Position numbers and translations under genes: made by a program. Positions 10,174 to 41,470 of a stretch of DNA of 64,000 nucleotides are shown here, in pieces. Below the pieces are notes generated by a model that made no database searches, was not told the origin of the DNA, and saw nothing but the letters and a program-made list of their open reading frames with translations. The stretch comes from Candidatus Altiarchaeota archaeon (GTDB taxonomy: Archaea; Altiarchaeota; Altiarchaeia; IMC4; SCGC-AAA252-I15), in assembly GCA_043800255.1 (NCBI GenBank), contig JAZDNF010000008.1, positions 32,001-96,000 of the forward strand, given 5' to 3'. Each line of letters begins with the position of its first letter. Within the stretch, counting starts at the first letter, position 1.

Positions 10174-10436
10174 AAGTTTTTCCTAAAAGAAAAAGGCTTG
10201 TCGAGTGCTCAGCGCGAGAAGCTCTGCTTCTCGGCTCGCCAAAATCGCAGTGGCGATTTTGCGCGTAACCAGTCTGAGCCACAGGCCCTTGTTTATTCTT
10301 TAGTTATTATGGGCCATTAAGCGACCGAAAGGGAGCGCATATGGCTCAACCGAGACATCCGTCTCGGTGAGCACGAAGACGAATGTCTTCGTTGCTCCTT
10401 TGGCCAGCCTTTAAAAAGGCTGTGAGCCACAGGCCC
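10174..10436 (-). repeat. Two truncated tandem copies of tRNA-Ile 5' part with inserted hairpin modules
   Basis: 10200-10210 plus 10266-10292 identical to 10095-10132, split by a 55-nt insert; 10423-10436 is a 14-nt copy. Confidence 0.9.
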
Positions 10437-10482
10437 GTGAAAATTTGAGGTTATTTTTAGTGTTTTTAAGATAAAAAATAGT

Positions 10483-10821
10483 CTACTTAATCCATTTTTG
10501 TCTGGCTTTTTTGATGGTGCCGCTGACTCCTATGATGTGGGGGAGTACGGGCGTCTTGTTTATCTCTGTTATTGTTACTATTGAGGCTCTCACTGGGTCG
10601 ACTGTCTTATGGTTTGTTTTTAGTATTCCAATGTTCTTGTTCTCATCCCATTCTATGAGCCAGAGGCTGGTTGTGGCGGCCTGCACCTCCCCCAGAAGCC
10701 TCTGAGTTGCGTTCAACAGCGCGTGTAGGACGTCCTTCTCATTCAGCCTAACGCTGGATTCTACCTTCAAGACCAGGTACCGGTTCCGTTCCCTCAATGT
10801 TGGGGGGTAGCGTGCTGCCAT
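10483..10821 (-). CDS. rnp2: RNase P protein component 2 (Pop5/Rpp14)
   Basis: PPTLRERNRY ... GVSGTIKKA; start placed at MAARY. Confidence 0.9.
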   Translation of the reverse strand: MAARYPPTLRERNRYLVLKVESSVRLNEKDVLHALLNATQRLLGEVQAATTSLWLIEWDENKNIGILKTNHKTVDPVRASIVTITEINKTPVLPHIIGVSGTIKKARQKWIK

Positions 10822-10823
10822 GG

Positions 10824-12278
10824 TTATTTTTTCTTCCAGTAATCTGCGTGTTTTTTCTCCACCTTTACTCTGCTGAGGAGGTTTATTATCGCATAGGATG
10901 CGAACATTATCTCGAACGGTATAAGCGGCACCTTGTACCTCTGCATGTAGAAGCTGACCATGTAGGTGACCGTGGTTATCGCAAAATATAGGTAAAATAT
11001 GCTGTGCTGCTTCCAGTATCGTTTGCAGGTTAACGCGACCCCGGCCAGAGTTAGAATCCACAGAGGCCACGCGTATGCGAGGTAATTCTCAGGATACCAT
11101 CGTAGTATGCACGTTTCAGTGGGTATGAACCAGAATTCTGTCAAGAAACGGTTTATCTTCTGTATGAAGATGTCCGGGTGCGCGGTTATGTGCTCTAGCG
11201 CGAGTTTTATCGCCAGCCTGTTCTTCGCCGCATCGTAGTTGGGCTGCGCCGGGTCCAAATTCTCGAAGGGGCTATAGTGGACTCCCTCCGGAGGCGAGTG
11301 CTCGTAGCATCCTGAGCTGTAGGGGTTGTTCCCGATCCAGAAGTTGACTCCGCTGTTCGTTGAGACGAACACGATTTCTCCGCCGCTGACGTTGTAGTTC
11401 CTGATGAACCAGGGCAGCTGTATTATGAGCACGGCCGCCAGGAGTATGGCCGAGAGCCGGAGCACATGCTTGCGGTCTTTCAGGTTTATGAGCAGCCAGA
11501 TTATGATCGCAGGTATCAGGAACACGGTCTGGGCTTTCAGGTACAAGGAAAAACCCACGGCAGCGCTAGCAACAATCCACGATTTCAGGTTGTTGTATTT
11601 TCGGAAGATGAACATGCAATAGAATCCAACCAGGAGAACGGATATGAGAAGCATCTCATTGTAGAGGTTTGTGGCATGGAAGAATAGGTCCAAATCGACC
11701 AACGAGATTACGAACGACGCCCACGCGACTCTGTCGTTGAAAAGCAGCTTCGCTATCTTCCACAACAGGAAGGCGTTTATTACGCTAAGGAGCACGAGAC
11801 TGAGCCTCCCGATAACATAGTCTCCGCCGAACAGGTAGTAGACCATGCCCAGGAAGTACGAGAACCCGGGCTCGTAATAGTATCCTGGGAATCCCTTCCC
11901 GCCTGCTATGCTCAGCCCGAACCTGTGATAGCCTTCGTCATCTTGGCCTGGGAGAGGCGCCCTATAGTCTCTGGCGAAGTCGACCTTCATGTAAGTCGAG
12001 CCTATGAGGATGAACAACGTTATGAGGGCGACAAGCGGCCTCTCTTTTATGAAATTGACCACGTCGGAGAGTGTGGAGTTGATGTCCTCCAGCAGGTTGT
12101 ATTCGTTCTCGAACTCGAGGCCACAATTGGGGCAGTAGGGGTAGTCGTCTCTTATAGGTGAGTCGCATTCACCACACCTGAGTTCTGTTTTCAGCTTTTT
12201 CACCACCCTGGTCCTGCATTCGGGGCAGCTGCTGTCGCCTTCAGCAAGCTCTCTCCCGCAATTGTAACAGTAGGCCAT
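10824..12278 (-). CDS. GT-C (GT39/ArnT-like) glycosyltransferase with N-terminal double zinc ribbon
   Basis: Four CxxC, DDEGY, P.FSYFLG, PWFIRNY, NFWIGNNP, RYKVP; many TM helices. Confidence 0.85.
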   Translation of the reverse strand: MAYCYNCGRELAEGDSSCPECRTRVVKKLKTELRCGECDSPIRDDYPYCPNCGLEFENEYNLLEDINSTLSDVVNFIKERPLVALITLFILIGSTYMKVDFARDYRAPLPGQDDEGYHRFGLSIAGGKGFPGYYYEPGFSYFLGMVYYLFGGDYVIGRLSLVLLSVINAFLLWKIAKLLFNDRVAWASFVISLVDLDLFFHATNLYNEMLLISVLLVGFYCMFIFRKYNNLKSWIVASAAVGFSLYLKAQTVFLIPAIIIWLLINLKDRKHVLRLSAILLAAVLIIQLPWFIRNYNVSGGEIVFVSTNSGVNFWIGNNPYSSGCYEHSPPEGVHYSPFENLDPAQPNYDAAKNRLAIKLALEHITAHPDIFIQKINRFLTEFWFIPTETCILRWYPENYLAYAWPLWILTLAGVALTCKRYWKQHSIFYLYFAITTVTYMVSFYMQRYKVPLIPFEIMFASYAIINLLSRVKVEKKHADYWKKK

Positions 12279-12315
12279 CTTCTGGAGTATAAGATTATGT
12301 TTAATTAAAATTTAA

Positions 12316-13341
12316 GTGAGGATGAAATCCGAGGTACTATATTATAGTAATACTGGGAGGATTAGGGAGGGCGTTGACAGGTTCCTCAAGGTTGTCTCCG
12401 ATGACCTTGGAAGGGACGGGGTAGCTTTCAAGATACACTTCGGCGAAAAGGGGAATGATACGCACATAAGGCCCAAATGGGTTAAGGGCATTCCCGAATA
12501 CTTCAACGACCCTGTGTTCGTCGAGTGCAATGTGATGTACAGGGGCTCGAGGACGAGGCGTTCAGACCATCTGAAGATGGCGAAAGAGCATGGCTTCGAT
12601 TTCATCAACATAGACATACTGGACGGCGAGATGGGTGAGGATTCTGTTGACGTGCCAGTCGCGCTGAAAGGCAGGAAGTCCGTGAAGCTTGGGGCTGGCA
12701 TACTAAAGTATGACAGGCTGGTGGCGCTCTCACACTTCAAAGGCCATATGGCGACCGGCTTCGGAGGCGCGCTGAAGAACATTGGCATGGGCTTGGGCTC
12801 GAGGGCTGGGAAGATGGAGATGCATTCTATAATCTCGCCCTACGTTGACAGCGCCAAATGCACTGCCTGCGGCGTCTGCGTGGAAAACTGCGACTTCAAC
12901 GCCATCGAATTGGGCAAGGCTGCCAGCATAGACAAAGAAAAGTGTGCAGGCTGCGCCAGGTGCATCGCAGTATGCCCGAACGGCGCGGTCAGCATACCCT
13001 GGGATATGAGCGACGAGGTTAATAACAGACTAATGGAGAACATCGCAGACTACGCCTTCGGCGCAACATCAGGGAGGAGATGGTGGTACATCAATTTTTT
13101 GACTGACATGACAGTGGACTGCGATTGCATGCCGCACGCCCAGAAGAGAATCGCCGATGACATTGGGATTCTGCTGTCAAAGGACCCGGTAGCGATAGAC
13201 CAGGCCTCCCTGGACTTAATAGTCGAGAAGAACGGCAAAGACCCGTTCAAAGCAGCCAACAAAGTGGACAGCTCCCACATTCTGGAGTATGGCGAAAGCA
13301 TCGGCCTCGGAACCAGGGAGTATACGCTGAATCGTATTTAA
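12316..13341 (+). CDS. DUF362 domain Fe-S protein with 2x[4Fe-4S] ferredoxin domain
   Basis: KIHFGE, SHFKGH, GGALKNIGMG, two CxxCxxCxxxC, DPVAIDQAS. Confidence 0.9.
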   Translation: MRMKSEVLYYSNTGRIREGVDRFLKVVSDDLGRDGVAFKIHFGEKGNDTHIRPKWVKGIPEYFNDPVFVECNVMYRGSRTRRSDHLKMAKEHGFDFINIDILDGEMGEDSVDVPVALKGRKSVKLGAGILKYDRLVALSHFKGHMATGFGGALKNIGMGLGSRAGKMEMHSIISPYVDSAKCTACGVCVENCDFNAIELGKAASIDKEKCAGCARCIAVCPNGAVSIPWDMSDEVNNRLMENIADYAFGATSGRRWWYINFLTDMTVDCDCMPHAQKRIADDIGILLSKDPVAIDQASLDLIVEKNGKDPFKAANKVDSSHILEYGESIGLGTREYTLNRI

Positions 13342-13365
13342 TTGCGGGCTTCCAATAATAATGTT

Positions 13366-15300
13366 ATGCGCACAGCAGAGGCTGGTTTAAAGCAGAAACC
13401 TGAAGGCACTTCTAAGTTTGACGTCCCGCTCAAGCAGGTCACAGGCTCAGACAAGCAATCGGAAGGGCAACTTGTTCTAGTCATCCTGGACGGCTGGGGT
13501 TTGGACAAAAAACTGAACGGTTGGGCTGACCCAGCTAACAGGAAGAAACTGACGGGAAATGCGATAGCGATGGCTAAGACCCCGAATATGGACTGGCTGT
13601 GGGCCAGTTACCCTCATCTCGTGATGAAAGCAAGCGGAGACCACATCGGCCTCAGGCCGGCAGACCCGACCATCGGACGGCAGGATGAGGAGGGGAACAG
13701 CGAAGTAGGCCACATGAACACCGGCTCAGGCCAGAAGCTCACGCTCTCGAAAGGCATAGACGAGAAGCTCGCTGACGGCTCCTTCTTCGAGAATCCTACA
13801 CTGAGAAAGGTCATGCAAAATGCCGTGGACAACGGCAGGCCGTTGCACATCTTTGGGATGGTGTCTGACATGGGCGTCCACAACAGGATAGACCACATGT
13901 TCGGGCTTTTTGAACTTGCGAAACGCGTTGGAGTGAAGGACGTACTGGTTCACGCCTTCACGGATGGCAGAGACACTGTCGAAAAGAACGAGGCAGTTTT
14001 GGGCGACGGGACAGGATACTTCGAGAAAGTGGTTGACGGGATAAAAAAATTCAACGCAGAAGCCGGAGGAAAGACTAGGGTCAAAGTAGCTTCCATCATG
14101 GGCCGCAGCTGGGGAATGGACAGAAACGATGAGAACTGGGACAAGACCGTATTCGCCTACAAGAGCATGCGATTCGGCGTTATTGTGGATGATAATGTGA
14201 CGGTTCGGACAGCTAAGGACCCGATAGAAGCCGTTAAAGCAGCGTATACGACTGAGAAGAAGAGGGGGGAATTCGAATCGGACGAGGACATAGTTCCAAC
14301 ACTGATCGTCGGGGCAGACGGCAAACCGATAGGCATAATACGCGACGGCGACTCAGTAATCGCAGCCAACTTCAGGAAGGACCGGATGATACAAATCACC
14401 AAGTGCTTTGTGGAGGATAACCTCTGGGACAAGAAGCACAACCCTGTTGACCTCAAAAGAGGGCCGGGAGACAAAGACGAGAAACCGGAGGTCGCCTTCA
14501 CAGGCCTGACATACTACTATGACGAGCTCAGAGGCAAGGTTGGGATGGCATTCACGACGGAGCCGCCGAAGAATACACTCTCAGACGTCCTGTATGAGGC
14601 TGGCAGGAAATCCTGGGCATGCGCAGAGTCGAACAAGTACAGTCACGTGACCCAGTATTTCGCAGGAGGCGAGCGCGACAAGCCGCTTCCCAACGAGGTC
14701 TGGGATCTCGTGGAATCTCCAACAGTGGTAGTGAATGGGAAAAAACAGAAAATCCAGACCGTAGACCTGTGGAGGAAGCCTGGCATGAGCGCGGCAGCCG
14801 TCGCAGACCACGCGGTTGATGCCATCAGCTCCGGCAATTACGATTTTGTCAGAATGAACTTCGCGAACCCGGATATGATAGGACACTGCGATCCTGTAAT
14901 AGGAGCAACCGATTTGGAGGGCAACAGGATAACATCAAGCGTAGATTCGGCAAAATTCGCCGTGGAGGCTGTCGACCGCCAGGTTGGCAGAATCGTGGAA
15001 GCCTGCCAGAAAACCAACTCCACCCTCATAATCACAGCAGACCACGGCAACGCTGAGGTGATGATCAACCAGAAGGGGACTACGAGCAAAAAGCACACGA
15101 ACAACGACGTGCCCTTTATCGTCATCCCCGCCAGGGGGACGAAAGTCGAACTCGCTTCTGATGATGCCCGCGGCAGGGCGGCTGAACTGAGGGACATCGC
15201 GCCCACGATACTCACCCTCATGAACTTAAAAGACAGAATCCCTAAGGAGATGACAGGGAAAAACCTTGCGACCAGGATAACCCACGCCAACACCGTCTGA
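13366..15300 (+). CDS. gpmI: 2,3-BPG-independent phosphoglycerate mutase (bacterial GpmI type, with insertions)
   Basis: LVILDGWG, GNSEVGH, DGRD, NFRKDR, NFANPDMIGH, TADHGNAE. Confidence 0.92.
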   Translation: MRTAEAGLKQKPEGTSKFDVPLKQVTGSDKQSEGQLVLVILDGWGLDKKLNGWADPANRKKLTGNAIAMAKTPNMDWLWASYPHLVMKASGDHIGLRPADPTIGRQDEEGNSEVGHMNTGSGQKLTLSKGIDEKLADGSFFENPTLRKVMQNAVDNGRPLHIFGMVSDMGVHNRIDHMFGLFELAKRVGVKDVLVHAFTDGRDTVEKNEAVLGDGTGYFEKVVDGIKKFNAEAGGKTRVKVASIMGRSWGMDRNDENWDKTVFAYKSMRFGVIVDDNVTVRTAKDPIEAVKAAYTTEKKRGEFESDEDIVPTLIVGADGKPIGIIRDGDSVIAANFRKDRMIQITKCFVEDNLWDKKHNPVDLKRGPGDKDEKPEVAFTGLTYYYDELRGKVGMAFTTEPPKNTLSDVLYEAGRKSWACAESNKYSHVTQYFAGGERDKPLPNEVWDLVESPTVVVNGKKQKIQTVDLWRKPGMSAAAVADHAVDAISSGNYDFVRMNFANPDMIGHCDPVIGATDLEGNRITSSVDSAKFAVEAVDRQVGRIVEACQKTNSTLIITADHGNAEVMINQKGTTSKKHTNNDVPFIVIPARGTKVELASDDARGRAAELRDIAPTILTLMNLKDRIPKEMTGKNLATRITHANTV

Positions 15301-15301
15301 G

Positions 15302-15455
15302 CTTTTGTCAAGAACCGCTGGTGTGGCGGAGGCAGATGCCTCCGACACGCGCCCGAGCAAGGCTCGGCCGCGTCAGAGACCGGCGGCATGAAATCAGAGG
15401 GGAAATAGTCTTGACAGAAGATTTCCGCCACCAGTCAATAGACTGGTGGAAATCT
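15302..15455. repeat. MITE-like nested inverted repeat with double-hairpin core
   Basis: 12-bp inverted repeats (11/12) at 15302-15313 and 15409-15420; internal hairpins CGGAGGC/GCCTCCG and CCGAGC/GCTCGG; further hairpin ~15419-15455. Confidence 0.55.
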
Positions 15456-15486
15456 CTGATTTATACCGTGCCATTTCATAGTTATC

Positions 15487-16035
15487 ATGGAGTTCATGAC
15501 AGATGCGTTGCTGGAAGTCGGAAAGGCAGGATTGTTAATTGCATCTGAGGTTGTAATCATCATAGTAGTCGCCCACGTTCTCATAAAAACCGTGGACAAA
15601 CTGCTTGGAAAGATCCTCAAGTTCACTAACTTCGACAGGACGCTTGAGAAGTTCTTCCACAAGAGCGTTATAATGCTGCTATGGATACTGACAGCAGGAG
15701 TCATCCTGCTGGTTCTGGGAGTCGACCTGAACACGCTCCTAGCCAGCTTCGGGGTGATGAGCTTCATAGTCGGTTTCGCGCTGAAGGACACCCTCAGCAA
15801 CTTCGCCTCAGGGATTATGATACTCGTCAACAAACCATTCGTCGTCGGGGATGACATAGAAATCAAAGAGGCGAAGGGCACGGTCAAAACGGTCAGCATG
15901 ACGTACACCAAAATCGTCACAAAAGACGGCGCCAAAATAACCATCCCCAACAATGTAGTCTGGAGCAACCCCATAATAAACCACACAGCATACAGGGCGA
16001 AAGACAGAGTCAGGAGAGAGGGGGAAGCTCAGTAG
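15487..16035 (+). CDS. mscS: Small-conductance mechanosensitive channel family protein
   Basis: GFALKDTLSNFASG, KPFVVGD, IPNN. Confidence 0.9.
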   Translation: MEFMTDALLEVGKAGLLIASEVVIIIVVAHVLIKTVDKLLGKILKFTNFDRTLEKFFHKSVIMLLWILTAGVILLVLGVDLNTLLASFGVMSFIVGFALKDTLSNFASGIMILVNKPFVVGDDIEIKEAKGTVKTVSMTYTKIVTKDGAKITIPNNVVWSNPIINHTAYRAKDRVRREGEAQ

Positions 16036-16126
16036 GTTGTTTATTTTTCTACGGAACCGCGGGGGGAGAGCACAATCTCGTGTAATGCGCTCGGTTTAAT
16101 AACGGAACTGATACATAGGTGATAAT

Positions 16127-16273
16127 ATGGCCTCTAAGAGATTTTTCAGGTGTAATGTCTGCAATGACGTACACTTCGGGCTGGCAGGCCCCGCAGTATG
16201 TCCGACATGCCAGGCTAAGAACGCCTACGTCGAGATTGACGCCCAGGAAGCTAGGAACGTGATGAACTTATGA
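16127..16273 (+). CDS. Small rubredoxin-like protein (48 aa, absent from ORF track)
   Basis: Manual translation MASKRFFRCNVCNDVHFGLAGPAVCPTCQAK...; AGGTGA SD; ATGA overlap with next gene. Confidence 0.8.
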   Translation: MASKRFFRCNVCNDVHFGLAGPAVCPTCQAKNAYVEIDAQEARNVMNL

Positions 16274-16536
16274 ACAAACAGGAGCTTAGGGCGGCTTGGG
16301 AAAAGTTCACGGAAAAAAACGACTTCAAACTGAACCCTGACGACGAACACGTATCTCTCGTCATAGAAGGCGTTCTCGAGAACGAGAGAAAATGCGGCCT
16401 CAAACTGTGCCCCTGCAGGCTGAGGGACGGCAGCAGGGAGATGGATTTGAAGCTCATATGCCCATGCAACTTCAAGGCCCAGGACACATGGAAAACGAAG
16501 GGACAGTGCTGGTGCGGCCTGTTCGTCAGAAAATAG
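16270..16536 (+). CDS. Ferredoxin:thioredoxin reductase catalytic subunit
   Basis: CPCR, CPC, CWCGLF motifs. Confidence 0.92.
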   Translation: MNKQELRAAWEKFTEKNDFKLNPDDEHVSLVIEGVLENERKCGLKLCPCRLRDGSREMDLKLICPCNFKAQDTWKTKGQCWCGLFVRK

Positions 16537-16574
16537 GTTAATATTTTATAATACAATAATATTGGGGTGACAGC

Positions 16575-17426
16575 ATGAGAACAGCAGTTATCGGAATATT
16601 CATCGCATTACTTGTTTTGGCTTCAGGGTGCACTAAGGAACCATCAGTCCCTGCGACAACGACGGTTACGCCCACATCAGCCGAGACGACTGTCGCAGTA
16701 AAGCCTTCGATAAAGGTCTCCACCAACCCAGCTGGCAGCACCGTCAGCGTCGACAGCCTGTACGTGGACGAGGACGGTTTCGTGGTAATACATAAGTTCG
16801 AGAACGGCCAGCTTGGGGAAGCCGTAGGCAACACTTACGTCACAGCAGGCCAGAAATCCGACGTCGAAGTTGGGATTTCCGGCGTCGAGGCTCCAGCGGA
16901 GCTTATTGCGATGCTCCACTATGATGACGGCGACGGAGTCTACGAGTTCCCGGGGCCTGACGGGCCGGTGAAGATTGGCGACATGATAGTGATGACAAAC
17001 TTCAGCCTCGTTGAGGCAACAGGAATCCAGTGCATAGACTGCGCTACAGGCTACACTGGAGGCGGATGCGCGACCGTGGATGATGTAACAGGAGAGATTG
17101 TCTCACCGCCGCCGTGCGTTCTGGAGGAGACTACCACATCCGTCACCGTGAGCGTTAAGGAATTCGACATCACAGCCAAACGGTTCAGCTTCACCCCGTC
17201 AACGATCAGGGTAAAGCAGGGCGACAATGTCAGGATAAGATTGACGAGCGCCGACGTCACGCACGGCTTCGCGATATCAGAATACGAGATAGACGAGAAG
17301 GTTAGCGGAGGCGAGACGAAAACGTTCGAGTTCACTGCTGACAAGGAGGGTATGTTCACCTTCAAGTGCTCCGTCTACTGCGGCACAGGCCACATGAACA
17401 TGAAAGGAACTCTGATAGTGGAGTAG
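16575..17426 (+). CDS. Lipoprotein with C-terminal CuA-type cupredoxin domain
   Basis: LASGC lipobox; HGF ... CSVYCGTGHMNM. Confidence 0.85.
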   Translation: MRTAVIGIFIALLVLASGCTKEPSVPATTTVTPTSAETTVAVKPSIKVSTNPAGSTVSVDSLYVDEDGFVVIHKFENGQLGEAVGNTYVTAGQKSDVEVGISGVEAPAELIAMLHYDDGDGVYEFPGPDGPVKIGDMIVMTNFSLVEATGIQCIDCATGYTGGGCATVDDVTGEIVSPPPCVLEETTTSVTVSVKEFDITAKRFSFTPSTIRVKQGDNVRIRLTSADVTHGFAISEYEIDEKVSGGETKTFEFTADKEGMFTFKCSVYCGTGHMNMKGTLIVE

Positions 17427-17427
17427 G

Positions 17428-17646
17428 ATGGCAATCGACATAGGATACTATGAGGTATGGGGTGTGCCGTTGATAATCTACGGCGGCATCATAACCCTAT
17501 TATCTCTTTTTATAACAGCATCAATAGCTGTATTGAACCGCAAGGGAGTTACAAAAATCCCATTCAAATGGCATCCTAGGATGGCGAAACTTTCGATAAT
17601 CCTTGCAGTCACTCACGCGACTTTGGTTGTGCTCTCAAGGATCTAG
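17428..17646 (+). CDS. Small two-TM membrane protein
   Basis: Two hydrophobic helices with His residues; 1 nt from upstream stop. Confidence 0.65.
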   Translation: MAIDIGYYEVWGVPLIIYGGIITLLSLFITASIAVLNRKGVTKIPFKWHPRMAKLSIILAVTHATLVVLSRI

Positions 17647-18050: not shown

Positions 18051-18055
18051 CTCAA

Positions 18056-18120
18056 GGTAACTTTATGGTTACTGTCAGTTATTAATATTGTCAGATTAAT
18101 ATTAGTTTATAAAAGTAACC
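18056..18120. promoter_or_regulatory. Putative HxlR operators flanking divergent AT-rich promoter boxes
   Basis: Palindrome GGTAAC-N6-GTTACT (18056-18073) and related box at 18104-18120 either side of ATTAATATT repeats. Confidence 0.45.
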
Positions 18121-18714: not shown

Positions 18715-18715
18715 C

Positions 18716-19503: not shown

Positions 19504-19513
19504 GGTGAGGACT

Positions 19514-31259: not shown

Positions 31260-31444
31260 TGCCGAAGGCGGGACTCGAACCCGCGACCTCCAGATAACTC
31301 AGCGTTATCGTGAAATCTTCCCTAGCCTTTGGCTACGGTGCCCGGCCCCAAAATTTTTTCTTTGGGGGTGAAGCACCTTTCTTTTCATAAAAGAAAGGGG
31401 CTCGCTTATGAGTCTGGCACTCTGCGCTACTGAGCTACTTCGGC
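31260..31444 (-). tRNA. tRNA-Met(CAT), elongator type, with 111-nt intron at 37/38 (31296-31406)
   Basis: GCCGAAG/CTTCGGC acceptor, CCAGA/TCTGG stem, GGTTCGAGTCC, perfect BHB; D-loop lacks GG. Confidence 0.9.
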
Positions 31445-31470: not shown

Positions 31471-31749
31471 GTACTGTCTTCGGCTCCGGCCTCGACAGTA
31501 CTGAATAATATTATCTTGACGTATTATATTTCTTTTCCATCAACGCTTTTCTTTCCTAAAGAAAAGGGTTGCTGGATTCAATATTATGGGCGTTAGAGTA
31601 TATTAATTTTCTTTTTCGCCAACGCAAACGAGACTTTGTCTCGTTGCGCACGAAGACGCTAGTCTTCGTTGCGTTTTTCTTTTCCCTAAGGAGCGAAGCT
31701 CCTTGGGCGCAGGGAACGAAGTTCCCTCGCGTCTAAAAGAAAAAGGTTG
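31471..31749. repeat. Cluster of T-rich/A-rich hairpin elements with nested double hairpins upstream of tRNA-Met
   Basis: Simple copy at 31541-31571; interrupted copy at 31620-31749; hairpin at 31471-31501. Confidence 0.8.
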
Positions 31750-33576: not shown

Positions 33577-33577
33577 A

Positions 33578-35452
33578 CTATTTCTCATATGGAGGGCGCC
33601 TGCCAAGGGCATCCTCCAGGTAGGCTCTCAACGGCTCAGCAACACTCCACGCCTGCGATATGCAGCCTCTCGGAAGGTGAGGCGCATCCCCGTCGAATAT
33701 CTCATTGATCGAGCCTAAGGCTCCAACCGATAGGGCACGGTCGAAGAAATCCTCTAAGAGTTTCCGGGCCCTCCTGGAAGCGGCTTTTCCGCCGTACCTG
33801 ACGGATGCTCTCACATAGGGCCCGAGAAGCCAGGGCCAGACTGTCCCATTATGGTATGCCTCTTCCCTCTGCCGGACGCCTCCAGAGTATGAGCCACAAT
33901 AGCTGGAATCATCAGAGGATAGCGTCCTCAACCCGAAAGGAGTCAGGAGTCGTTTCTCAACAGCGGAGAGTATGGATTTAGCTCTCGACTTGTCAACGCA
34001 GGTGTAATCGAGGGACAATGCCATCAGCTGGTTAGGCCTGAACGAGTCAACGCCGATGCAGTCCATAAGATGACTGCCATTCCAGTACTCTCTCAGAAAA
34101 GTTGACTCGAAATCTCCTATAATCTCTGCAGTTGGGAGGGTATTGTCAAGTTGGGCCAGAGTCGAGAATTTCTCAAACGCTTTGAGCGCATTATACCAGA
34201 GAGCCTGGACTTCGACAGCATCATCCCGTCTGAGAGTGTCCATCCAGGTTCCACTGTCATGCATTATGAGGCCGTTTTCGGATATGCTGCTGTAGTATTG
34301 CATGAGGTCAGACAGCCGAGCCCAGTGTTTCCTCAATAGTTCCCTCCCCATATCAGGGCCTGCGTATTTTATGTACTGCATGATGCTGTCAAAAAGCCAC
34401 AAGCTTGAATCATAGTCCCTGTAGACGGGAGTTCCGGACTCGGATTCGGTCATAATCCTGCCGTCATGAACTCTGCCGAGAAAATGCTCTAATATGAGCC
34501 TGGCATCATCTATCCTGCCCCTCACGAGCGTCAGACCAGGCAAGCTTATCATCGCATCCCTTCCCCACTCCCCAAACCAGTGGTAGCCTGCGACCACCGT
34601 CATCCTGCTGCCAGCATCTATGACAAAAGAGTCGGCAGCGGAGCCGAGAACGTCTAACACACTCTCCTTGGTTCTCTTCCCAGGCTGGCCGTATGCCAGC
34701 TTACTCTCCAGACCATCCAAGCCAACAGCAATGACATAGGAGCATGTACTGTCCGGGCTGACATCAGCAGAGTAAGTGAAAGGTATGAGAGACTCGTCGA
34801 CTGCAGGATAGCCTCTCCCCGCCTCCTGCCGGTAGTAGATGTTCCTCATCCAAAGGTTGAGGGAGTTGAAGTCACCCTCAGACGCCCGGAACATGAGCTT
34901 ATGCCCTCCAACCGAGACTGATGCGTTCATCCCATCAGCATTCACTTCAAAATTTTTCTCGCCCTCACGCAAAAGCTCATGGATGCTGCGGAAGCTGATG
35001 TGGGGGGAGACGACATGCCTTATGCGCTCCCCAGACCTGTTACTTAGAGCGTAAGAGACCATGATCTCGTTCTTTCCTGAAGCGATTTTTACCCTCTTAT
35101 CCAGCCTGAAGCCGTCACCCTCATACGTGAAGATGACGTAATCCCTGCCTTTCTCGAATCCGACGAGCTTTTCAAGGCCGGGAGAGACAATACTGCCGCC
35201 GAATTCGACGCAATGGAGTTCGACTCTCTGTGAGCCGACGTATAATGCATCCTCCATCTTCTGCAGGCACACCATCCTCCTCAAGTTCTCAAGCGACGAG
35301 ACCAGCAGCCCATGATACTTCCGCGTGTTCAGCTCCATAACGGTCGAAGAAGAGTAGCCGCCTATGCCGTTGGAAAGAAGCCACTCCAGCTCGGAAGCCG
35401 CTGGAAAACCAAGAGCATTGGGTTTGACCCGCATTCCACAGTCCACGGACAA
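33578..35452 (-). CDS. Amylo-alpha-1,6-glucosidase (glycogen debranching enzyme)
   Basis: EWLLSNGIGGY, TRKYHGLL, AGYHWFGEWGRD, RPNQ, YHNGTVWPWL, QAWSVAE. Confidence 0.93.
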   Translation of the reverse strand: MSVDCGMRVKPNALGFPAASELEWLLSNGIGGYSSSTVMELNTRKYHGLLVSSLENLRRMVCLQKMEDALYVGSQRVELHCVEFGGSIVSPGLEKLVGFEKGRDYVIFTYEGDGFRLDKRVKIASGKNEIMVSYALSNRSGERIRHVVSPHISFRSIHELLREGEKNFEVNADGMNASVSVGGHKLMFRASEGDFNSLNLWMRNIYYRQEAGRGYPAVDESLIPFTYSADVSPDSTCSYVIAVGLDGLESKLAYGQPGKRTKESVLDVLGSAADSFVIDAGSRMTVVAGYHWFGEWGRDAMISLPGLTLVRGRIDDARLILEHFLGRVHDGRIMTESESGTPVYRDYDSSLWLFDSIMQYIKYAGPDMGRELLRKHWARLSDLMQYYSSISENGLIMHDSGTWMDTLRRDDAVEVQALWYNALKAFEKFSTLAQLDNTLPTAEIIGDFESTFLREYWNGSHLMDCIGVDSFRPNQLMALSLDYTCVDKSRAKSILSAVEKRLLTPFGLRTLSSDDSSYCGSYSGGVRQREEAYHNGTVWPWLLGPYVRASVRYGGKAASRRARKLLEDFFDRALSVGALGSINEIFDGDAPHLPRGCISQAWSVAEPLRAYLEDALGRRPPYEK

Positions 35453-35508
35453 ATATTAAACTTTTATACCTATAATGACATAATAGGAAAATAGACCGGC
35501 CTGACAAG

Positions 35509-36657
35509 ATGATACCAAAGGACGATAAGACGCTGAAGCTCCTTCTGATCGGGCTCGCATCCGCTGCCATAGTACTGAGGAAAATGCCGCTGGCCGCTCT
35601 CTCGCTCGCCATGCTCGGCATACTGTTACTTTCAGAGCGGGCATCCCATCCCATCACAGTGAGAAAGGTGAAGTACAACAAAGACACCGGCAGATTCGAA
35701 GTCTTCGTCGAGAACAAGGGATCAAAGCCTCTGACCGTGAACTATGCGATACGCTCAGTCCAGCCGGAGTATGCTGAAAGCGTCGGCCTCACAGATGAGG
35801 ATGGAATCGAGTTCCTGAGAGGCAGCAGCGGAGGCTACAGGGAGAACTTCTCGCTGATTTCCGCGGAATTCCCAGGCAAGACTCTTGGAGCATGCCAGGC
35901 GGAGCTGATCGAAGCTGCTAGGATGGCACCAGAGGACGGCTGGGACCCAGCGCTCCAGAAGACCGTCCGAATCACGGCAGCATACACCGGAGAGGACATG
36001 GACGCTGTTAGGAAGCTTGAACTCACGGTCCCCGTCGAAGTGTCAGAGAACCACCCTTACCTGAGGAAGGTCGGGGCTGAGAGAGAGTTCGTACTATCGG
36101 ATGGATATGGTGTGGCAGGCAGGGCAGCATCATTGGAGGCCCTGGCAGACCACGTCAGAGGGAAGTCCAGCCATGTTTTGGCACACGTCAGGAACGAGGA
36201 CATACAGCGCTGGGTGATGAACGTCGTGGGCGACAGCGAACTGTCAGACAGGATTTCAAAGATTACCAGCCTGCCTGACGAGCAAATATTGGACACGCTC
36301 GAGGAAACCCTCAGGGAGAGGATTCTTGAACTGAGATACGGTCATCTCGTGGAGAAGCACCCGCTCCTGGCTGATGTTGAGCCATGGCATGCCTTTCACA
36401 TGAAATCAGACCACGAGAATATCATAGGAGTCTGCAGGAGCCTGTCCTCCCTTTTGGAGCTTATTAGAGCATCACCAGAAGAGTGCGTCGGATTCCACCT
36501 CAGAGGGGATAATGACTTCTCAAAGTGGGTGGCGAACACAGTAGGCGACCTGAAACTGTCCGATAGGATAGACGTAATAGACGCCTCAGACATGAGGTAT
36601 GCGAAGCTTAAGCTGATAAGCCTGCTAGAGGAGAGGATACGGGAGCTGGAAGGCTGA
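35509..36657 (+). CDS. Membrane-anchored protein with two DUF5752-like repeats
   Basis: N-terminal TM; repeated H....ND(F/I)..WV...VGD..LSDRI units. Confidence 0.65.
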   Translation: MIPKDDKTLKLLLIGLASAAIVLRKMPLAALSLAMLGILLLSERASHPITVRKVKYNKDTGRFEVFVENKGSKPLTVNYAIRSVQPEYAESVGLTDEDGIEFLRGSSGGYRENFSLISAEFPGKTLGACQAELIEAARMAPEDGWDPALQKTVRITAAYTGEDMDAVRKLELTVPVEVSENHPYLRKVGAEREFVLSDGYGVAGRAASLEALADHVRGKSSHVLAHVRNEDIQRWVMNVVGDSELSDRISKITSLPDEQILDTLEETLRERILELRYGHLVEKHPLLADVEPWHAFHMKSDHENIIGVCRSLSSLLELIRASPEECVGFHLRGDNDFSKWVANTVGDLKLSDRIDVIDASDMRYAKLKLISLLEERIRELEG

Positions 36658-36698
36658 CTTCTGATTTTTAAAAGCATTTGAACAAATAGGGTATTCCA

Positions 36699-37952
36699 AT
36701 GACTGCAGTCTGCTTTTACTTTCAGGTGCACCAGCCGTTCAGGACCACCTGGTTCTGGCCTGACAACGGCATAGACTATAAGGGAAAGCTGGAGGACCTG
36801 TACTTTGACACCAAACTCAATGAGTTCACCTTCAGGAAGGTCGCCGGCAAATGCTACCACAGGGCCAACGACATAATACTGTCGCAGATCGACAGGTTCA
36901 AGGGAGGTAAGAGAAAGTTCAAGGTCAGCTTCTCGCTGTCAGGCACGTTCCTCGACCAGTGCGAACGCTGGGATAAGGACCTGATGGAAAAATTCAGGCA
37001 GATGGCAGACTCCGGGTGCGTTGAATTCCTCGGCGAAACCTACTACCACTCGCTTGCAGGCTTGTACGAGGACAAGGAGGAGTTCACAGACCAGGTCGAA
37101 CAGCACAGGCAGGCGATGAAGGACCTCCTAGGCATGAAGCCGGAAGTCTTCAGGAACACGGAATTACTGTACCATGACGGCATCGGCGAAACGATAGAGA
37201 GGATGGGCTTCAAGGCCACCATGACCGAGGGGACGGAGCGCATACTTGAAGGCTGGAAGAGCCCCAACTACGTGTACAGGAGGAGGGGGGGAGACATCAG
37301 GATACTATTAAGGAACTATAAGCTGTCAGACGACGTCGGATACAGGTTCTCGTCCAAGTGGTGGGAGGAGTATCCGCTGACGGCTGACAAATATTCCGCA
37401 TGGCTCTCATCATCGCCGGGCGACACGATAAACATCTTCATGGACTATGAGACCTTCGGAGAGCACCAGTGGGAGGACACCGGCATATTCTGGTTTTTAG
37501 GGGCAATACCGCAGGAAGTACTCAAGTGGGAGAACCTCGAGTTCTCAACACCGTCTGAAGTTGTCAGAAAGCACGCCCCGAGAGGGGAGATAACAGTCCC
37601 CTACTATGAGACGGTCTCCTGGGCTGACATAGAACGCGACCCCAGCGCATGGTTGGGCAACCACATGCAACATCTGAACTTCAGCCAGATGAAGAGGCTC
37701 GGAAAGCTGGTCAAAGAGTCCGGCAACGAGGAGTTCATCAGAATATGGAAGTACCTGCAGACCGGCGACCACTTCTATTACATGTGCACCAAGTGGCTGG
37801 CAGACGGCGACGTGCACAAGTACTTCAGCCACCACGGCAACCCCTACGACGCAGGCATAAACTATCTGGCCATACTCTCAGACCTTAAGGAGAGGGTTCT
37901 GAGATATATGCTCGAAAACGGCGGAAAGGCTAAGCCGAGAAGAAAAAATTAG
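36699..37952 (+). CDS. GH57 alpha-amylase
   Basis: FQVHQP, ETYYHSL, FRNTEL, LSDD.GYRFS, MDYETFGEH, DHFYYM. Confidence 0.93.
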   Translation: MTAVCFYFQVHQPFRTTWFWPDNGIDYKGKLEDLYFDTKLNEFTFRKVAGKCYHRANDIILSQIDRFKGGKRKFKVSFSLSGTFLDQCERWDKDLMEKFRQMADSGCVEFLGETYYHSLAGLYEDKEEFTDQVEQHRQAMKDLLGMKPEVFRNTELLYHDGIGETIERMGFKATMTEGTERILEGWKSPNYVYRRRGGDIRILLRNYKLSDDVGYRFSSKWWEEYPLTADKYSAWLSSSPGDTINIFMDYETFGEHQWEDTGIFWFLGAIPQEVLKWENLEFSTPSEVVRKHAPRGEITVPYYETVSWADIERDPSAWLGNHMQHLNFSQMKRLGKLVKESGNEEFIRIWKYLQTGDHFYYMCTKWLADGDVHKYFSHHGNPYDAGINYLAILSDLKERVLRYMLENGGKAKPRRKN

Positions 37953-39124
37953 GCGCTCATCCCATCATACAGGCTGACGTATTTTTTCGCGATATGAGAC
38001 CATGTGAAGTCCCGGACGCTTCTTTTCGCGTTATCGCCCATCCTCCTTATGCTCCCGCCGGTGGGGTCGCCCAGCAGGTATTTAATGCCCCATGCGATGC
38101 TCGACGGGTGCTGGTTTACTTTTATCCCGTTGTAGAAGTTCTTGACAATCTCCCTCGGGCCTCCGATGTCGGTCGCGACAACAGGCTTGGAGGAAGCCCA
38201 CGCCTCCAATGTTATGATCCCGAAGGGCTCGTTCCTGCTGGGTATGCACACCATATCGCATGATTTGAAGAGTTCGTGCTTCTCCTCCTCGCTGACATAT
38301 CCTAGGGTGTGCACTTTGCCGTCCACTCCCAGCCAGTGGGAGCGACCGTTTATGTGGTTTATCATGCTGTCTCCCCCTCCTGCGAAGACGAACTGGGCAT
38401 CATGTCTGAATGATAGAACATCGGGGACTGCCTCAAGCAGCAGGTCAGGGCCCTTCTGATGGCACATCCTCCCCATGAACAGCACGACAGGATCCAGAGG
38501 CCATATCCCATACCGTTCCTTCACCCTGCCGGGGTCGATTTTGCCCTCGAATTCGGACGCGTTTATGCCGTTGTAGTTGACTTCTATCTTATCCCCCGGT
38601 ATCTGGTATTCGCGCATGAGCTCGTCTTTCATAGAGTATGAGACTGTTGTGACAAGCTTGGACAGGTATCCGCCAAGCCACTCGCGGTGCCTCACCCTAC
38701 CAGAGAACCAGTTATCCTGGTAGCTGTTCCCGTTTCTCCCGAGTTCGGTTGAATGGCAGGTCCACACGAAATCATAGCCTTTGTGGTTTTTCAGGTTGGC
38801 GAGGGCGTTCACAACATGCCAGTCGTGGCCGTGGAGTACGTCGAATTTGCCGTATCCGCTTTCTACGTGATGGAAGCAGGATACCATGCTGTCGCACATG
38901 TGGTCCATGTATTCTATGAAGTCCTCGCAGCCTGGGCTCACGCACCTGTGCTCATAGTAATCGTTTATCATCTCATGCTCAGGCTGCCCGTGCCCCATCC
39001 TCGTGAACACGTGAACCTCATGCCCCTGTTTGGCTAGGGCCTGCGCTAGGTTGGATACCACCTCAGCCACACCCCCCACTGGGACAGAATGCTTAGTCTC
39101 CCAGGAGAAGAAGCCAATCCTCAC
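37949..39124 (-). CDS. GT4 glycosyltransferase (glycogen synthase-like)
   Basis: FSWE...GG, HGHDW, HSTE.GR, QKGPD, EPFGI..LEAW. Confidence 0.9.
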   Translation of the reverse strand: MRIGFFSWETKHSVPVGGVAEVVSNLAQALAKQGHEVHVFTRMGHGQPEHEMINDYYEHRCVSPGCEDFIEYMDHMCDSMVSCFHHVESGYGKFDVLHGHDWHVVNALANLKNHKGYDFVWTCHSTELGRNGNSYQDNWFSGRVRHREWLGGYLSKLVTTVSYSMKDELMREYQIPGDKIEVNYNGINASEFEGKIDPGRVKERYGIWPLDPVVLFMGRMCHQKGPDLLLEAVPDVLSFRHDAQFVFAGGGDSMINHINGRSHWLGVDGKVHTLGYVSEEEKHELFKSCDMVCIPSRNEPFGIITLEAWASSKPVVATDIGGPREIVKNFYNGIKVNQHPSSIAWGIKYLLGDPTGGSIRRMGDNAKRSVRDFTWSHIAKKYVSLYDGMSA

Positions 39125-39136
39125 GTCATCACTTCC

Positions 39137-39340
39137 TTAGTTTGTCTTCCTAACGTATGTCTTCGCCTTGCTCCTGTTGATCTCTATCTTGCCTTCGCGG
39201 GCAAGCCATCCTAACGCCATGTAGAAGATGTCATCATTCTTCTTGATCTTCTTCTTCACAGCGCCCACTTCAACGGGAGTGTCTATGCCGCAAAAATAGA
39301 TTTCGCCAGCGGCAAAGCCGACATCAGGTTTTATGTCCAT
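39137..39340 (-). CDS. Small winged-helix protein (DUF2582-like)
   Basis: VGFAAGEI ... MALGWLAREGKI; GGAGG SD. Confidence 0.85.
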   Translation of the reverse strand: MDIKPDVGFAAGEIYFCGIDTPVEVGAVKKKIKKNDDIFYMALGWLAREGKIEINRSKAKTYVRKTN

Positions 39341-39490
39341 CTACCCAACCTCCTAGAGCATGCCAGAACACGCTGACAGTGCCAATAATTTATCAAACGG
39401 AGGGCTTAAAAACCCTTCGGAATCAGACCCTACCAGGATATTTATACAATCAAACCAATATGGTAAACTCAAAAAAAACCTCAAAAAAAA

Positions 39491-39615
39491 CCCGCCTTAG
39501 CGTAGCCTGGTTTAACGCGGCCGGCTGTAGTTTGGATCAAGAGGTAGAAGCCTCTCAAAGGCCGTAAAAAATAGCAGGCACCGGCAGACCCCCGGTTCAA
39601 ATCCGGGAGGCGGGA
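39491..39615 (+). tRNA. tRNA-Tyr(GTA) with 49-nt intron at 37/38 (39531-39579)
   Basis: C1-G72 acceptor CCCGCCT/AGGCGGG, GCCGG/CCGGC stem, GGTTCAAATCC; relaxed BHB. Confidence 0.95.
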
Positions 39616-39708
39616 AAATTCTTCTTTTTGATGTATTGGCGGGGCTTTATGCCCCGCGATTCGTTATGAGGTTATAGTGCTAACTGCCTTATGCAAGAAA
39701 CCCTATGG

Positions 39709-39912
39709 TTATGTGAGTCCTCCGTTGTTTCCGCCTAGCAGTTCTAGGTACTTGGCGGAGCATTCCACGAGTTTCTGCCTGAGTAGGGGTGCTGACTGCC
39801 AGAAGATAATGCTAACAGTCACCAATGACGCTCCGACTGGACTTAACACGTTCACAAAATCAGAAATAAAAAAGATATAGTCGTCTGCCTGCCTCCGAAG
39901 TGGGTTTTTCAT
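39709..39912 (-). CDS. Small hypothetical membrane protein
   Basis: ATGA overlap with upstream AbrB-like gene; hydrophobic core. Confidence 0.4.
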   Translation of the reverse strand: MKNPLRRQADDYIFFISDFVNVLSPVGASLVTVSIIFWQSAPLLRQKLVECSAKYLELLGGNNGGLT

Positions 39913-40073
39913 TTTCTTTTTTTCCTGGATTCTCCGATTACTGTCAACTCGAGGTTACCTCTCTCGTTGAAATCCCAATCCAGCTCATCCCCCTTCGCAA
40001 GCCCGAGCCGCTTCACCTTCTCCTGCGGAATGCTCACGAAAAATCTTTTTTGGCTTTCCTGAAGCCGCACCAT
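39909..40073 (-). CDS. AbrB/MazE/SpoVT-type DNA-binding protein
   Basis: FFVSIPQEKVKRLGLAKGDELDW; start placed at MVRLQ. Confidence 0.75.
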   Translation of the reverse strand: MVRLQESQKRFFVSIPQEKVKRLGLAKGDELDWDFNERGNLELTVIGESRKKRK

Positions 40074-40278
40074 CGTGCTAACATTATACAAAATATAATA
40101 AAAGATTAATGTTTTCGTATATAAAAGCTTACTTTGGCTCAATCAGACAGCCAGAGCGAGAGGCCGGAGACGTCAAAGCCCAACCCAATCGCATAAAACG
40201 AGGATTTAATGCGGTTCTTGCTTCCGAAGAGCTGACTTTTTACGTTTATAATGGTTACTACCAGATAGGTAAGTTCAC

Positions 40279-41358
40279 ATGGACACAAATGCAGCGGCAC
40301 CCATCGTCTTGAAAGCAGACGCGCCGAGGAGGGCGTTCTGCGTGGCCATGCAGAAGGACAACAAGCCAGTGAGAGTCGAGGGCGAATCCTCTGCCGATTT
40401 CACAACCCTTCTAGAGGAGTCTGATGTAGCGTGGGTCAACTTTGTCGTAGACGACATTAACGCCGATGGAGAGGCTATCGCAACCTCTCTAGGATTCAGC
40501 CAGAATCTGGTTTCCACCCTCCTGACAGGGTTCAGGTCCAACTATGAGGACAGGGACGTCGAGCTGGGGATTATGATACCCGCAGTCGACACCGAGAGAC
40601 TAGAGGTCACCATACACCCTCTGGTAATACTGATCAAAAGAGGCCTTATTCTGACAATCCACGGGAAGAACATAAGCCGGCTGGTTAAGTTCTCAAGATA
40701 CGCGAACACCTTCATGAAGAAGATAAAACAGAACATCCCCTGGCAGGACAAGATGACCATACTCCTGTGGAGGATCATGGACGAGAACAATTCCAAGAAT
40801 TTCGACCACCTCAGGGAAATCGAAGAGCAGGCTGATGAGTTGGCGAAGGACATGATGAACCCGATGACGCCGAGAGACAAGCTCGGTCCGGACATCTACA
40901 GGATGAAACATGCCCTCATAATATACCTCGACTCCCTCTGGGCGACGCTTGACGTAATCCACACCCTAAGATACGGCGACGCTGAAGTCCTGTCAGACAA
41001 CAGTAAGATACTTGAGAGGATATCAGTACTCGCGTCTGACGTTACCAGCCAGATATCAATAAGCGAGCACATGTCAGAGGTGCTGGCATCTGGCCTGGAA
41101 GTCTTACAAACCATATACAACAACCAGCTGCAGATGCTGAACAACAGGCTAGCCTTACTGGCAACATGGCTGGCAATCATCGGCACGGCAGTCCTAGTGC
41201 CCAACACCCTGGCAACGATATTCGGAATCCCAACAATATCAGAACACCTAGACTGGCGCCTCACAATACTGATACTAATCGCCTCAACGCTGCTGTCAGC
41301 TTGGATAGCATACTGGGCCATAAGAGCAAAAGGATTAATACCCAAAAGCGTGGAATAG
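40279..41358 (+). CDS. CorA family divalent cation transporter (divergent signature)
   Basis: Long helical soluble domain, two C-terminal TMs; FGIP instead of GMN. Confidence 0.8.
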   Translation: MDTNAAAPIVLKADAPRRAFCVAMQKDNKPVRVEGESSADFTTLLEESDVAWVNFVVDDINADGEAIATSLGFSQNLVSTLLTGFRSNYEDRDVELGIMIPAVDTERLEVTIHPLVILIKRGLILTIHGKNISRLVKFSRYANTFMKKIKQNIPWQDKMTILLWRIMDENNSKNFDHLREIEEQADELAKDMMNPMTPRDKLGPDIYRMKHALIIYLDSLWATLDVIHTLRYGDAEVLSDNSKILERISVLASDVTSQISISEHMSEVLASGLEVLQTIYNNQLQMLNNRLALLATWLAIIGTAVLVPNTLATIFGIPTISEHLDWRLTILILIASTLLSAWIAYWAIRAKGLIPKSVE

Positions 41359-41426
41359 ATCCTTTCACCAGTAACCGCCCGCCAACCCCCATTTTTATTC
41401 CCCAAAGTTTAATATTAACCTTCGCT

Positions 41427-41470
41427 GCCCCGGTAGTGTCAGCAGCCTTTTAAGAAAAGGCTGGCGAAAA
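41427..41470 (+). repeat. 13-nt copy of tRNA-Asp 5' end fused to CAGCCTTTT..AAAAGGCTG hairpin element
   Basis: GCCCCGGTAGTGT at 41427-41439 equals 41491-41503; element at 41443-41470. Confidence 0.8.

Follow-up and report, generated by a model that had tools for sequence, protein, structure and literature searches.

Duplicated tRNA ends joined to hairpin modules beside intact tRNA genes of an altiarchaeal genome: possible scars of duplication-insertion events

Two tRNA genes, tRNA-Ile(GAU) and tRNA-Asp(GUC), lie in a 64,000-nucleotide (nt) stretch of DNA from a Candidatus Altiarchaeota archaeon (GenBank assembly GCA_043800255.1, contig JAZDNF010000008.1; the whole stretch is termed the window), and each is preceded by a copy of its own first bases fused to an element that carries a CAGCC hairpin. 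The window is contig C11:32001-96000 of an assembly of 1.75 Mb in 17 contigs that is 93% complete. Both fusions named in the original prediction are present: the minus strand reads GGGCCTGTGGCTCA from 10436 to 10423 and passes directly into CAGCCTTTTTAAAGGCTGGCCAAAGG, and the plus strand reads GCCCCGGTAGTGT at 41427-41439, followed by CAG and CAGCCTTTTAAGAAAAGGCTGGCGAAAAG. As claimed, each fragment lies upstream of an intact tRNA gene with which it shares a strand and is identical to the first bases of that gene, and the two loci share orientation and layout while their tRNA sequences differ. The features of the two loci are:

10423-10436, minus strand: tRNA-Ile 5' fragment 1, nt 1-14 (GGGCCTGTGGCTCA), which agrees at 14 of 14 positions with the intact gene that begins at 10128.
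10289-10422, minus strand: element A, 134 nt, made up of the CAGCC hairpin with its purine tract (10422-10397), a double-hairpin module, a ATGCGCTC...TCGCTTA-core module and an A/T-rich end.
10129-10288, minus strand: tRNA-Ile 5' fragment 2, made up of nt 1-23, a 54-nt D-loop insert, GAGCACTCGAC (11 further tRNA bases), a degenerate T-run hairpin and an A/T-rich stretch.
9966-10128, minus strand: intact tRNA-Ile(GAU), with an anticodon-loop intron that opens with an AGCCCC T-run hairpin.
9795-9811, minus strand: tRNA-Ile 3' fragment (AAATCTCCGCAGGCCCA), 17 nt from T-loop to discriminator, 154 nt past the gene and without CCA.
41427-41439, plus strand: tRNA-Asp 5' fragment, nt 1-13, identical to the start of the intact gene.
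41440-41490, plus strand: Asp element, made up of CAG, the CAGCC hairpin (41443-41463), GCGAAAAG and a 27-nt tail.
41491-41616, plus strand: intact tRNA-Asp(GUC), also with an anticodon-loop intron; its Rfam score of 26.5 bits is sub-threshold.

The Ile locus is nested, running from fragment 1 through element A, fragment 2 and the intact gene to the 3' fragment; at the Asp locus, the fragment starts 64 nt upstream of the intact gene. The word CAGCCTTTT occurs four times in the window against 0.74 expected occurrences. Just outside the window, a second Ile-like tRNA (CAU anticodon) shows the same layout with a 14-nt fragment of its own, and a copy of element A that is 96% identical precedes it (C11 96761-96892). 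The 14-mers at the two Ile-type loci follow their own tRNA (G9 in one, A9 in the other; one informative base). Since element A is 96% identical at the two loci and the 14-mers nevertheless follow the local tRNA, the repeat appears to have been made from the target and not carried by the element.

Because standard finders overlook genes of this kind, tRNA genes were located genome-wide by the pairing of T-arm and acceptor stem, and 32 of 44 candidates were kept by hand, the other 12 being dropped by eye for want of a tRNA-like D region. In the window, ARAGORN reported a single tRNA, tRNA-Val, and Rfam found two at gathering score and a third (38.9 bits) only at a looser E-value threshold. At least six intact tRNA genes are present there (3151-3307, 9966-10128, 31260-31444, 39491-39615, 41491-41616 and 58704-58777), and the Ile(GAU) and Asp(GUC) genes are among those overlooked by both programs.

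An exact copy of the first 9 nt was found within 400 nt upstream of 11 of the 32 tRNAs. The same word was found downstream, reversed or reverse-complemented at none of the 32 in each case, and these controls exclude chance as the source of the 5' fragments. A 9-mer from the interior of the gene recurred upstream only once (1/32), as Ile fragment 2. The 3'-terminal 9 nt (positions 64-72) recurred downstream of five tRNAs, and neither upstream nor reversed at any of the 32. With two 7-nt cases and second copies added, the catalogue holds 15 5' fragments at 13 genes (7, 7, 9, 9, 9, 10, 13, 13, 14, 14, 16, 18, 20, 20 and 23 nt). The 3' fragments at 5/32 genes are 10-20 nt long, run from the T-loop or T-stem to the discriminator, lie downstream of the gene and are never followed by CCA; three genes have fragments on both sides. 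On contig C5 (7824-9254; locus L140), a tRNA gene has an 18-nt copy of its 3' end at a distance of 1.4 kb on the downstream side, and the interval holds a pseudouridine synthase gene (S4 and PseudoU_synth_2 domains). The same trailer also carries a 20-nt 3' fragment of another tRNA, the one at 31260-31444 of the window.

The junction is not fixed, since the length of the 5' fragment varies from 7 to 23 nt in this genome and from 14 to 27 nt in relatives. The original prediction had placed it at one structural position, the start of the D-loop, and had proposed targeting by structure or by distance from the transcription start. What stands is that all 5' fragments end early in the gene, that the junctions as a whole lie near gene ends, and that the compact CAGCC form joins at nt 13-16, the start of the D-loop; a single position does not stand, with junctions spread over nt 7-23. 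Nor is the element specific to the D-loop: it is also found 0-6 nt past complete tRNA 3' ends, at the opening of anticodon-loop introns and, in one Micrarchaeota-titled contig, between two copies of the start of a protein gene. The junctions can be explained without any aim at the D-loop, since a filter on which insertions survive, set out below, would suffice for their clustering.

The same layout was observed in relatives of three families, drawn from other genera and families of the order, with fragments of 14, 15, 18, 18, 21, 21, 23 and 27 nt. In genome G026, a tRNA-Ile is preceded by a 14-nt fragment with one mismatch joined to the same CAGCC hairpin, and this fragment tracks that genome's own tRNA at position 6; the element there is identical to the first 29 nt of the Asp element, counted from CAGCC. 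Genome G020 has an 18-nt fragment and two 21-nt copies, G005 an 18-nt fragment, and G010 fragments of 15 and 23 nt. In G036, the fragment is 27 nt long and leads into a conserved AGCCCC hairpin of the intron type, and the gene behind it is intron-free. Among 49 genomes of the order, three contain the exact Ile junction word, and in one of them (G006) it is a tRNA 3' end with its trailer, so that the Ile junction itself is common only to the source genome and G026. Loci with DPANN record titles add 5' fragment ends at 11-18 and 15.

Fragment and element might together form a functional RNA, acting as a leader or tRNA-like decoy, with a 5' strand that has to match that of the tRNA, for processing, as a control of folding or as an alternative first exon, and the folding results bear on this reading, which we consider quite improbable. 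Ile fragment 1 and element A fold at -67.6 kcal/mol (z-score -7.5 against shuffles) with all 14 fragment bases paired with the element; in three loci of class II tRNAs, a complementary stretch directly preceding the tRNA folds the fragment into a closed hairpin; the junction of A14 with CAGCC recurs at the tRNA-Ile of another family, where the fragment follows its own tRNA; and a gene for an RNase P protein adjoins the Ile locus. This gene, an open reading frame (ORF) at 10483-11070 on the minus strand, lies on the upstream side of the locus and encodes an Rpp14/Pop5 domain preceded by about 95 residues without a Pfam match. Against a functional RNA, the Asp element folds no better than shuffles (z -1.2), the Ile junction word was found in 3/49 genomes, in one of them as a tRNA 3' end, and no bulge-helix-bulge was seen at the junctions, either by eye or in minimum-energy folds. 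In addition, the fragments carry 1-4 mismatches in G026, at loci L039, L074 and L016 and at C7 37011, and to judge from these sequences they seem to decay like neutral DNA.

Splicing of an upstream fragment to the downstream gene was rejected, as no bulge-helix-bulge complementarity was found by eye and the intact copy makes splicing unnecessary. An archaeal bulge-helix-bulge tRNA intron interrupts the sole mature copy, and here the downstream gene is complete from nt 1; likewise, the intact gene lies adjacent, which does not fit a split tRNA gene. Split tRNA genes are known in Nanoarchaeum and Caldivirga and resemble the present loci in that a separate 5' piece is followed by non-tRNA sequence. 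They differ in that here a complete gene follows directly downstream and the pieces, at 7-23 nt, are too short for halves.

The sequences that follow the fragments belong to a small set of hairpin modules that also form trailers and introns. A T-run hairpin starts within 6 nt of the 3' end of 15/32 tRNAs (one of the 15 looks spurious) and opens an anticodon-loop intron in 18/32, at gene offsets 39-45; all 33 copies in these two settings have the tRNA sense orientation, and an inverted copy lies further inside one trailer. Genome-wide, 57 of its 78 strand-hits lie within 400 nt of the catalogued tRNAs, which rules out a general terminator, and several of the remaining hits adjoin what appear, by look alone, to be other stable-RNA genes. 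Other modules occur in 2-5 copies each, always in or adjoining tRNA genes. They include a double hairpin, a CGACC-loop-GGTCG hairpin, a GTGYCATCTTCG...CTCGATGACAC form and the ATGCGCTC...TCGCTTA-core module, whose stems differ between copies and by eye remain complementary. The double hairpin (10345-10397 in the window) has the stems GAAGAC/GTCTTC and GAGAC/GTCTC, variable loops and a CGCAA/TTGCG closure, and leaders, introns and a relative's trailer carry it as an insert at one and the same position of the hairpin unit, from which it is missing in one metagenome contig. Rfam matched only tRNAs at the tRNA loci, and no family overlapped the elements even at E-values up to 5; no K-turn, C/D or H/ACA identity could be assigned, as none of the modules fitted the consensus by eye and Rfam gave no match.

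The modules that follow fragments are those that open introns, and this brings in a second reading, which sees the fragments as orphaned exons, 5' or 3', of older alleles that were interrupted differently: the gene would have gained a second copy in tandem, arisen locally or arrived from elsewhere, and the old one decayed to its first exon and the start of its intron. Ile fragment 2 fits such a history, as it is longer (nt 1-34), contains a D-loop insert absent from the intact gene and ends in a degenerate intron-type hairpin; its insert type recurs in two partial tRNA copies in G020 (L014), and the 27-nt fragment of G036, with its intron hairpin before an intron-free gene, can be read in the same way. 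Within the 32 intact genes, however, the T-run hairpin lies only at the anticodon loop and never in the D-arm, so that none of them offers a living counterpart of an exon-intron boundary at nt 13-20. The genome also encodes a single homologue of the splicing endonuclease EndA, in an ORF of 179 amino acids, which we take to be the size of the type restricted to canonical motifs. On balance we think it unlikely that orphaned exons account for the junctions.

Of 81 perfect hairpins with a pyrimidine 5' arm in the genome, 20 have an exact mirror of the purine arm at exactly +8 nt, and none of the 81 has a mirror copy at any other offset from 0 to 20, or a direct copy. The G positions shift in step across all three arms of the mirror-bearing hairpins, and the 8-nt linker is CGTTCACG or a close variant; examples in the window, all on the minus strand, lie at 3232-3266, 10060-10088 and 31542-31570. 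This plan is that of a potential intrastrand triplex, which could form as purine-purine-pyrimidine on the tRNA-sense strand or as pyrimidine-purine-pyrimidine on the other strand; the folding tools used model Watson-Crick pairs only. The commonest module consists of a clamp, a T-rich arm, a loop, an A/G-rich arm, a short linker and the mirrored purine arm, and the CAGCC element is its short form, with the short plan AAAAG, GCTGGC, GAAAA. The tract of the CAGCC element is too short to inform on the mirror, except at the Iainarchaeum-titled locus L057, where a G is mirrored. With up to one mismatch and offsets of 4-12 allowed, a mirror copy was found in 12 of 35 informative hairpins at archaeal-titled loci compared with one of 15 at bacterial-titled loci. 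The mirror-purine motif is unexplained and is probably a new structural motif.

A related design is known from bacteria, in which potential intrastrand triplex (PIT) repeats (BoxC/PIT, 'TM' motifs) have been tied to local rearrangement and instability (PMC4666352). Both designs place three consecutive arms on a single strand, of which two are complementary and one could take part in a triplex, and both are intergenic and multi-copy. As described there, the PIT motifs are G/C-rich and bacterial; those observed here are A/T-rich, archaeal, in tRNA-sense orientation and part of tRNA introns. The word tRNA does not occur in the main text of the PIT paper (0 occurrences; PMC4666352).

Further examples of fragments and elements lie elsewhere in the window:

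58572-58701, minus strand: CAGCC...GGCTGGCGAAAAG element that starts 2 nt past the complete tRNA-Val (58704-58777) and whose loop is enlarged by about 110 nt of inserted hairpins.
3377-3434, minus strand: two 5' fragments of the class II tRNA at 3151-3307, one of 10 nt (3434-3425) and one of 13 nt with one mismatch (3389-3377).
3024-3033, minus strand: 10-nt 3' fragment (AACCTCGGCG) of the same tRNA.

Both 5' fragments of the class II tRNA are closed into hairpins by a complementary stretch, and in metagenome data a relative's contig spans the region 3377-3434 with small indels. Long series of stable tetraloop hairpins, with blocks 89-100% identical, were observed at 58500-58701 of the window and, in the source genome (G000), at C15:22190-22480 and C7:325186-325239; they follow tRNA-Val, another tRNA and, on C15, what by eye resembles a gene for signal recognition particle RNA.

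A scan for the element pattern in 185,579 species' genomes returned at least 80 loci, and among the loci listed 20 are archaeal-titled and 60 are repeats in Clostridia. The archaeal titles among them are Iainarchaeum, Woese-, Pace-, Micr- and Altiarchaeota and 'uncultured archaeon'. At these loci the element opens a tRNA intron (L018), follows tRNA 3' ends (L064, L069), follows 5' fragments upstream of intact genes (L039, L074) or lies between two copies of a tRNA 3' end (L042). At the Micrarchaeota-titled locus L085 (approximately 2797-2890), it has on either side an exact copy of a protein gene's first 23 nt, from ATG onward. GGAGG precedes each copy, and an ORF of 23 codons begins in the one upstream and ends with a stop that overlaps the real start. 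In Oscillospiraceae, Ruminococcus and Butyricicoccus (loci L020-L096), many copies of a repeat fit CAGCCTTT...AAAGGCTGGCNAAA, up to several per contig. At four loci with 'uncultured archaeon' or Altiarchaeales titles (L019, L063, L088, L092), the CAGCC element forms tandem arrays in which it alternates with two further conserved hairpin modules, GGTGGGGCAT...GCTTAGCCCCACTGAA and GTGCGCTTGAGCCC...GGGCGAAACGCAC, at a period of about 130-365 nt. In metagenomes, the Ile junction word gave only chance matches, with the hairpin in 0/80 (the best 80 of 120 stretches), and a scan for an empty-site allele gave 0 matches.

Four results favour a duplication at the DNA level, made from the target, as the origin of the junctions. 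One is that the repeats of the two Ile-type loci follow the local tRNA, as noted above; the others concern repeats that are longer than the tRNA fragment and joints in contigs of relatives. In G020, a perfect repeat of 59 nt, consisting of 41 nt of upstream DNA and 18 nt of tRNA, flanks a 70-nt insert, and in G010 an upstream stretch is, by eye, common to all three copies. In the source genome, the 45-nt stretches that precede Ile fragment 1 and the intact Ile gene gave an alignment superior to all 300 shuffles, and the corresponding alignment at C8 133094 was matched by only 1/300. In total, the repeat extends into the promoter region in four loci. DNA contigs of relatives, from three metagenome runs of one groundwater study, contain joints that omit parts of the Ile locus. 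One (10289 to 10438) skips 148 nt, exactly fragment 1 and element A, and another (10345 to 10397) skips the 51-nt double hairpin and has one letter (C) in its place; a third (10105 to 10266; 160 nt skipped, 27 letters fitting both sides and 13 unique) is too weak to use.

A reconstituted tRNA with a terminal direct repeat is the classic footprint of integration, and this is the layout found here. The fragments could be repeats of an attachment (att) site left by plasmids or viruses that integrated into tRNA ends, the intervening 45-170 nt being the remains of the element. A usual crossover site of such integration is the T-loop, where 3' fragments in this genome begin; the 3' fragment of one tRNA lies 1.4 kb away, and the genome encodes one tyrosine recombinase, a single Phage_integrase match at C7:191315-191800. 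Terminal tRNA fragments beside reconstituted genes are also known from integrating elements (PMC3293823; in Thermococcaceae, 10.1101/2022.07.05.498093), among them, in the former, a 5' fragment of a Caldiarchaeum tRNA-Thr with a 1.8-kb insert that bears a recombinase. We nevertheless regard integration as an unlikely origin. No ORF is present in the inserts, which are made of the modules also seen in introns and trailers, and the 1.4-kb interval contains the pseudouridine synthase gene noted above and not a gene of a mobile element. With at least 13 different tRNAs having their own fragment, one element family would need 13 att sites. The repeats of the Ile-type loci follow the local tRNA at the one informative base, unlike an attP carried by an element, the repeat of G020 takes in 41 nt of host DNA upstream, and the sole recombinase is far from any catalogued tRNA. 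Compared with integrating plasmids and viruses of the SSV1 and pNOB8 type, the likeness lies in an intact tRNA with a terminal repeat, foreign DNA between, and a repeat that ends at the tRNA boundary. The differences are that the insert of 45-170 nt lacks both an ORF and an integrase and is assembled from modules that make up introns and trailers in this very genome, that a third of the tRNA genes are affected, and that the repeats are apparently made from the target, sometimes with its promoter.

Other enzymatic routes were rejected. A transposon or miniature inverted-repeat transposable element with target-site duplication does not fit, as no terminal inverted repeats were seen by eye at the ends of element A, the repeat lengths are variable (7-23 nt; 59 nt in G020) and, among the transposases searched for, neither Y1 nor TnpB was found. 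Retro-copying as a general route is contradicted by 3' fragments without CCA, by the lack of an RVT_1 match and by the promoters co-duplicated in four loci. Transposition of single strands of the IS200/IS605 type and integration of the Cas1 type were set aside as well, because no match to Y1_Tnp, TnpB or Cas1 was found; for these families and RVT_1 the negative is limited by the 93% completeness of the genome. Cas1-type integrases duplicate the leader-proximal repeat of CRISPR arrays, and casposons leave duplications of 14-15 bp. The formal order of leader, repeat, new DNA and repeat is alike, and the repeat of the CAGCC cases is 13-16 nt; the present case differs in its variable repeat length and in that no Cas1 homologue was found.

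A further parallel comes from Thermoproteales, where similar introns occur across tRNA types ('intron transposition') and the route of their arrival is called open (10.64898/2026.10.13.758758). Closely similar intervening sequences across the tRNA genes of one genome are common to both cases. Here, the modules are found in leaders and trailers as well, bordered by duplicated tRNA ends, a footprint that the accessible text of that study does not report. A keyword search of the open-access literature returned nothing on miniature module inserts bordered by tRNA ends, on a mirror-purine motif in tRNA introns or on this layout in DPANN-type archaea, which is no proof of absence.

The repeats with their spread of lengths, the modules shared with introns and trailers, and the co-duplicated promoters at four loci are what an account of the junctions has to accommodate. 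The explanation that we favour, and to which we give about even odds, is that the junctions are scars of duplication-insertion events at the DNA level, of which only those near a gene end survive. The inserted material would be one or more of the small set of hairpin modules that form tRNA flanks and introns in this lineage. An event on the 5' side would leave, in this order, the promoter, tRNA nt 1 to N, the modules, an A/T-rich stretch and the intact tRNA; one on the 3' side would leave the intact tRNA, the modules and tRNA nt M to 73. Since the tRNA genes here are single-copy and essential, an intact copy would remain only where the duplicated stretch reaches the end of the gene, and duplications of up to about 60 bp would then yield survivors with junctions within about 7-27 nt of either end. 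The clustering near gene ends would thus follow from survivorship, without aiming. As for the process, our guess is that replication stalls or a break is repaired, with a switch of template from one copy of a module to another, which may be helped by non-B DNA that the modules could form. In all likelihood the fragments have no activity of their own. Should they be transcribed as part of a leader, RNase P could presumably remove them, given the Rpp14/Pop5 ORF beside the Ile locus.

Several observations weigh against a duplication-insertion origin. The upstream match is non-significant in 11/13 loci, where similarity begins at tRNA +1; simple duplication does not predict this, short of faster divergence or replacement of the flanks. 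All fragments meet the adjoining module exactly at its 5' end, a pattern that resembles a defined mobile unit and not random filler. The junction of A14 with CAGCC recurs upstream of the tRNA-Ile of another family in G026 and would require a site preference or a function. The filter of survivorship gives no account of these three points, the frequent exact +1 start, the exact abutment of module 5' ends and the recurrence in two families, and they keep alive the readings of att integration, orphaned exons, a functional leader and mobility of intron modules. Furthermore, neither an enzyme nor a donor copy was identified. The 148-nt joint comes from one low-depth contig (side 45, 'between: not known') and may just as well reflect a deletion between the repeats. 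Finally, the catalogue is hand-curated (32/44), and its counts are lower bounds, genes with unusual T-arms being missed.

Taken more broadly, the loci might be frozen intermediates in the movement of archaeal tRNA intron and flank modules, a view that we hold to be possible and somewhat doubtful. The modules, a family able to form triplexes and hairpins, would spread at the DNA level without an enzyme encoded by the element and enter tRNA genes by duplication-insertion, giving an intron where a splicing motif forms and a fragment, module and intact gene where they land near gene ends, and the mirror purine tract would be a new structured element, a triple helix of DNA or RNA, in tRNA introns and trailers of DPANN-type archaea.

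How archaeal tRNA introns arrive is an open question. The finding that intron-forming sequences also occupy leaders and trailers, together with duplicated tRNA ends and, in four loci, promoters, provides a DNA-level footprint open to dating, counting and comparison across strains. The mirror repeats of the module suggest a role for non-B DNA or for a triple helix of RNA, a concrete structure that can be tested. In addition, because fragments and long introns defeat standard tRNA finders, the gene sets of such genomes will be wrong.

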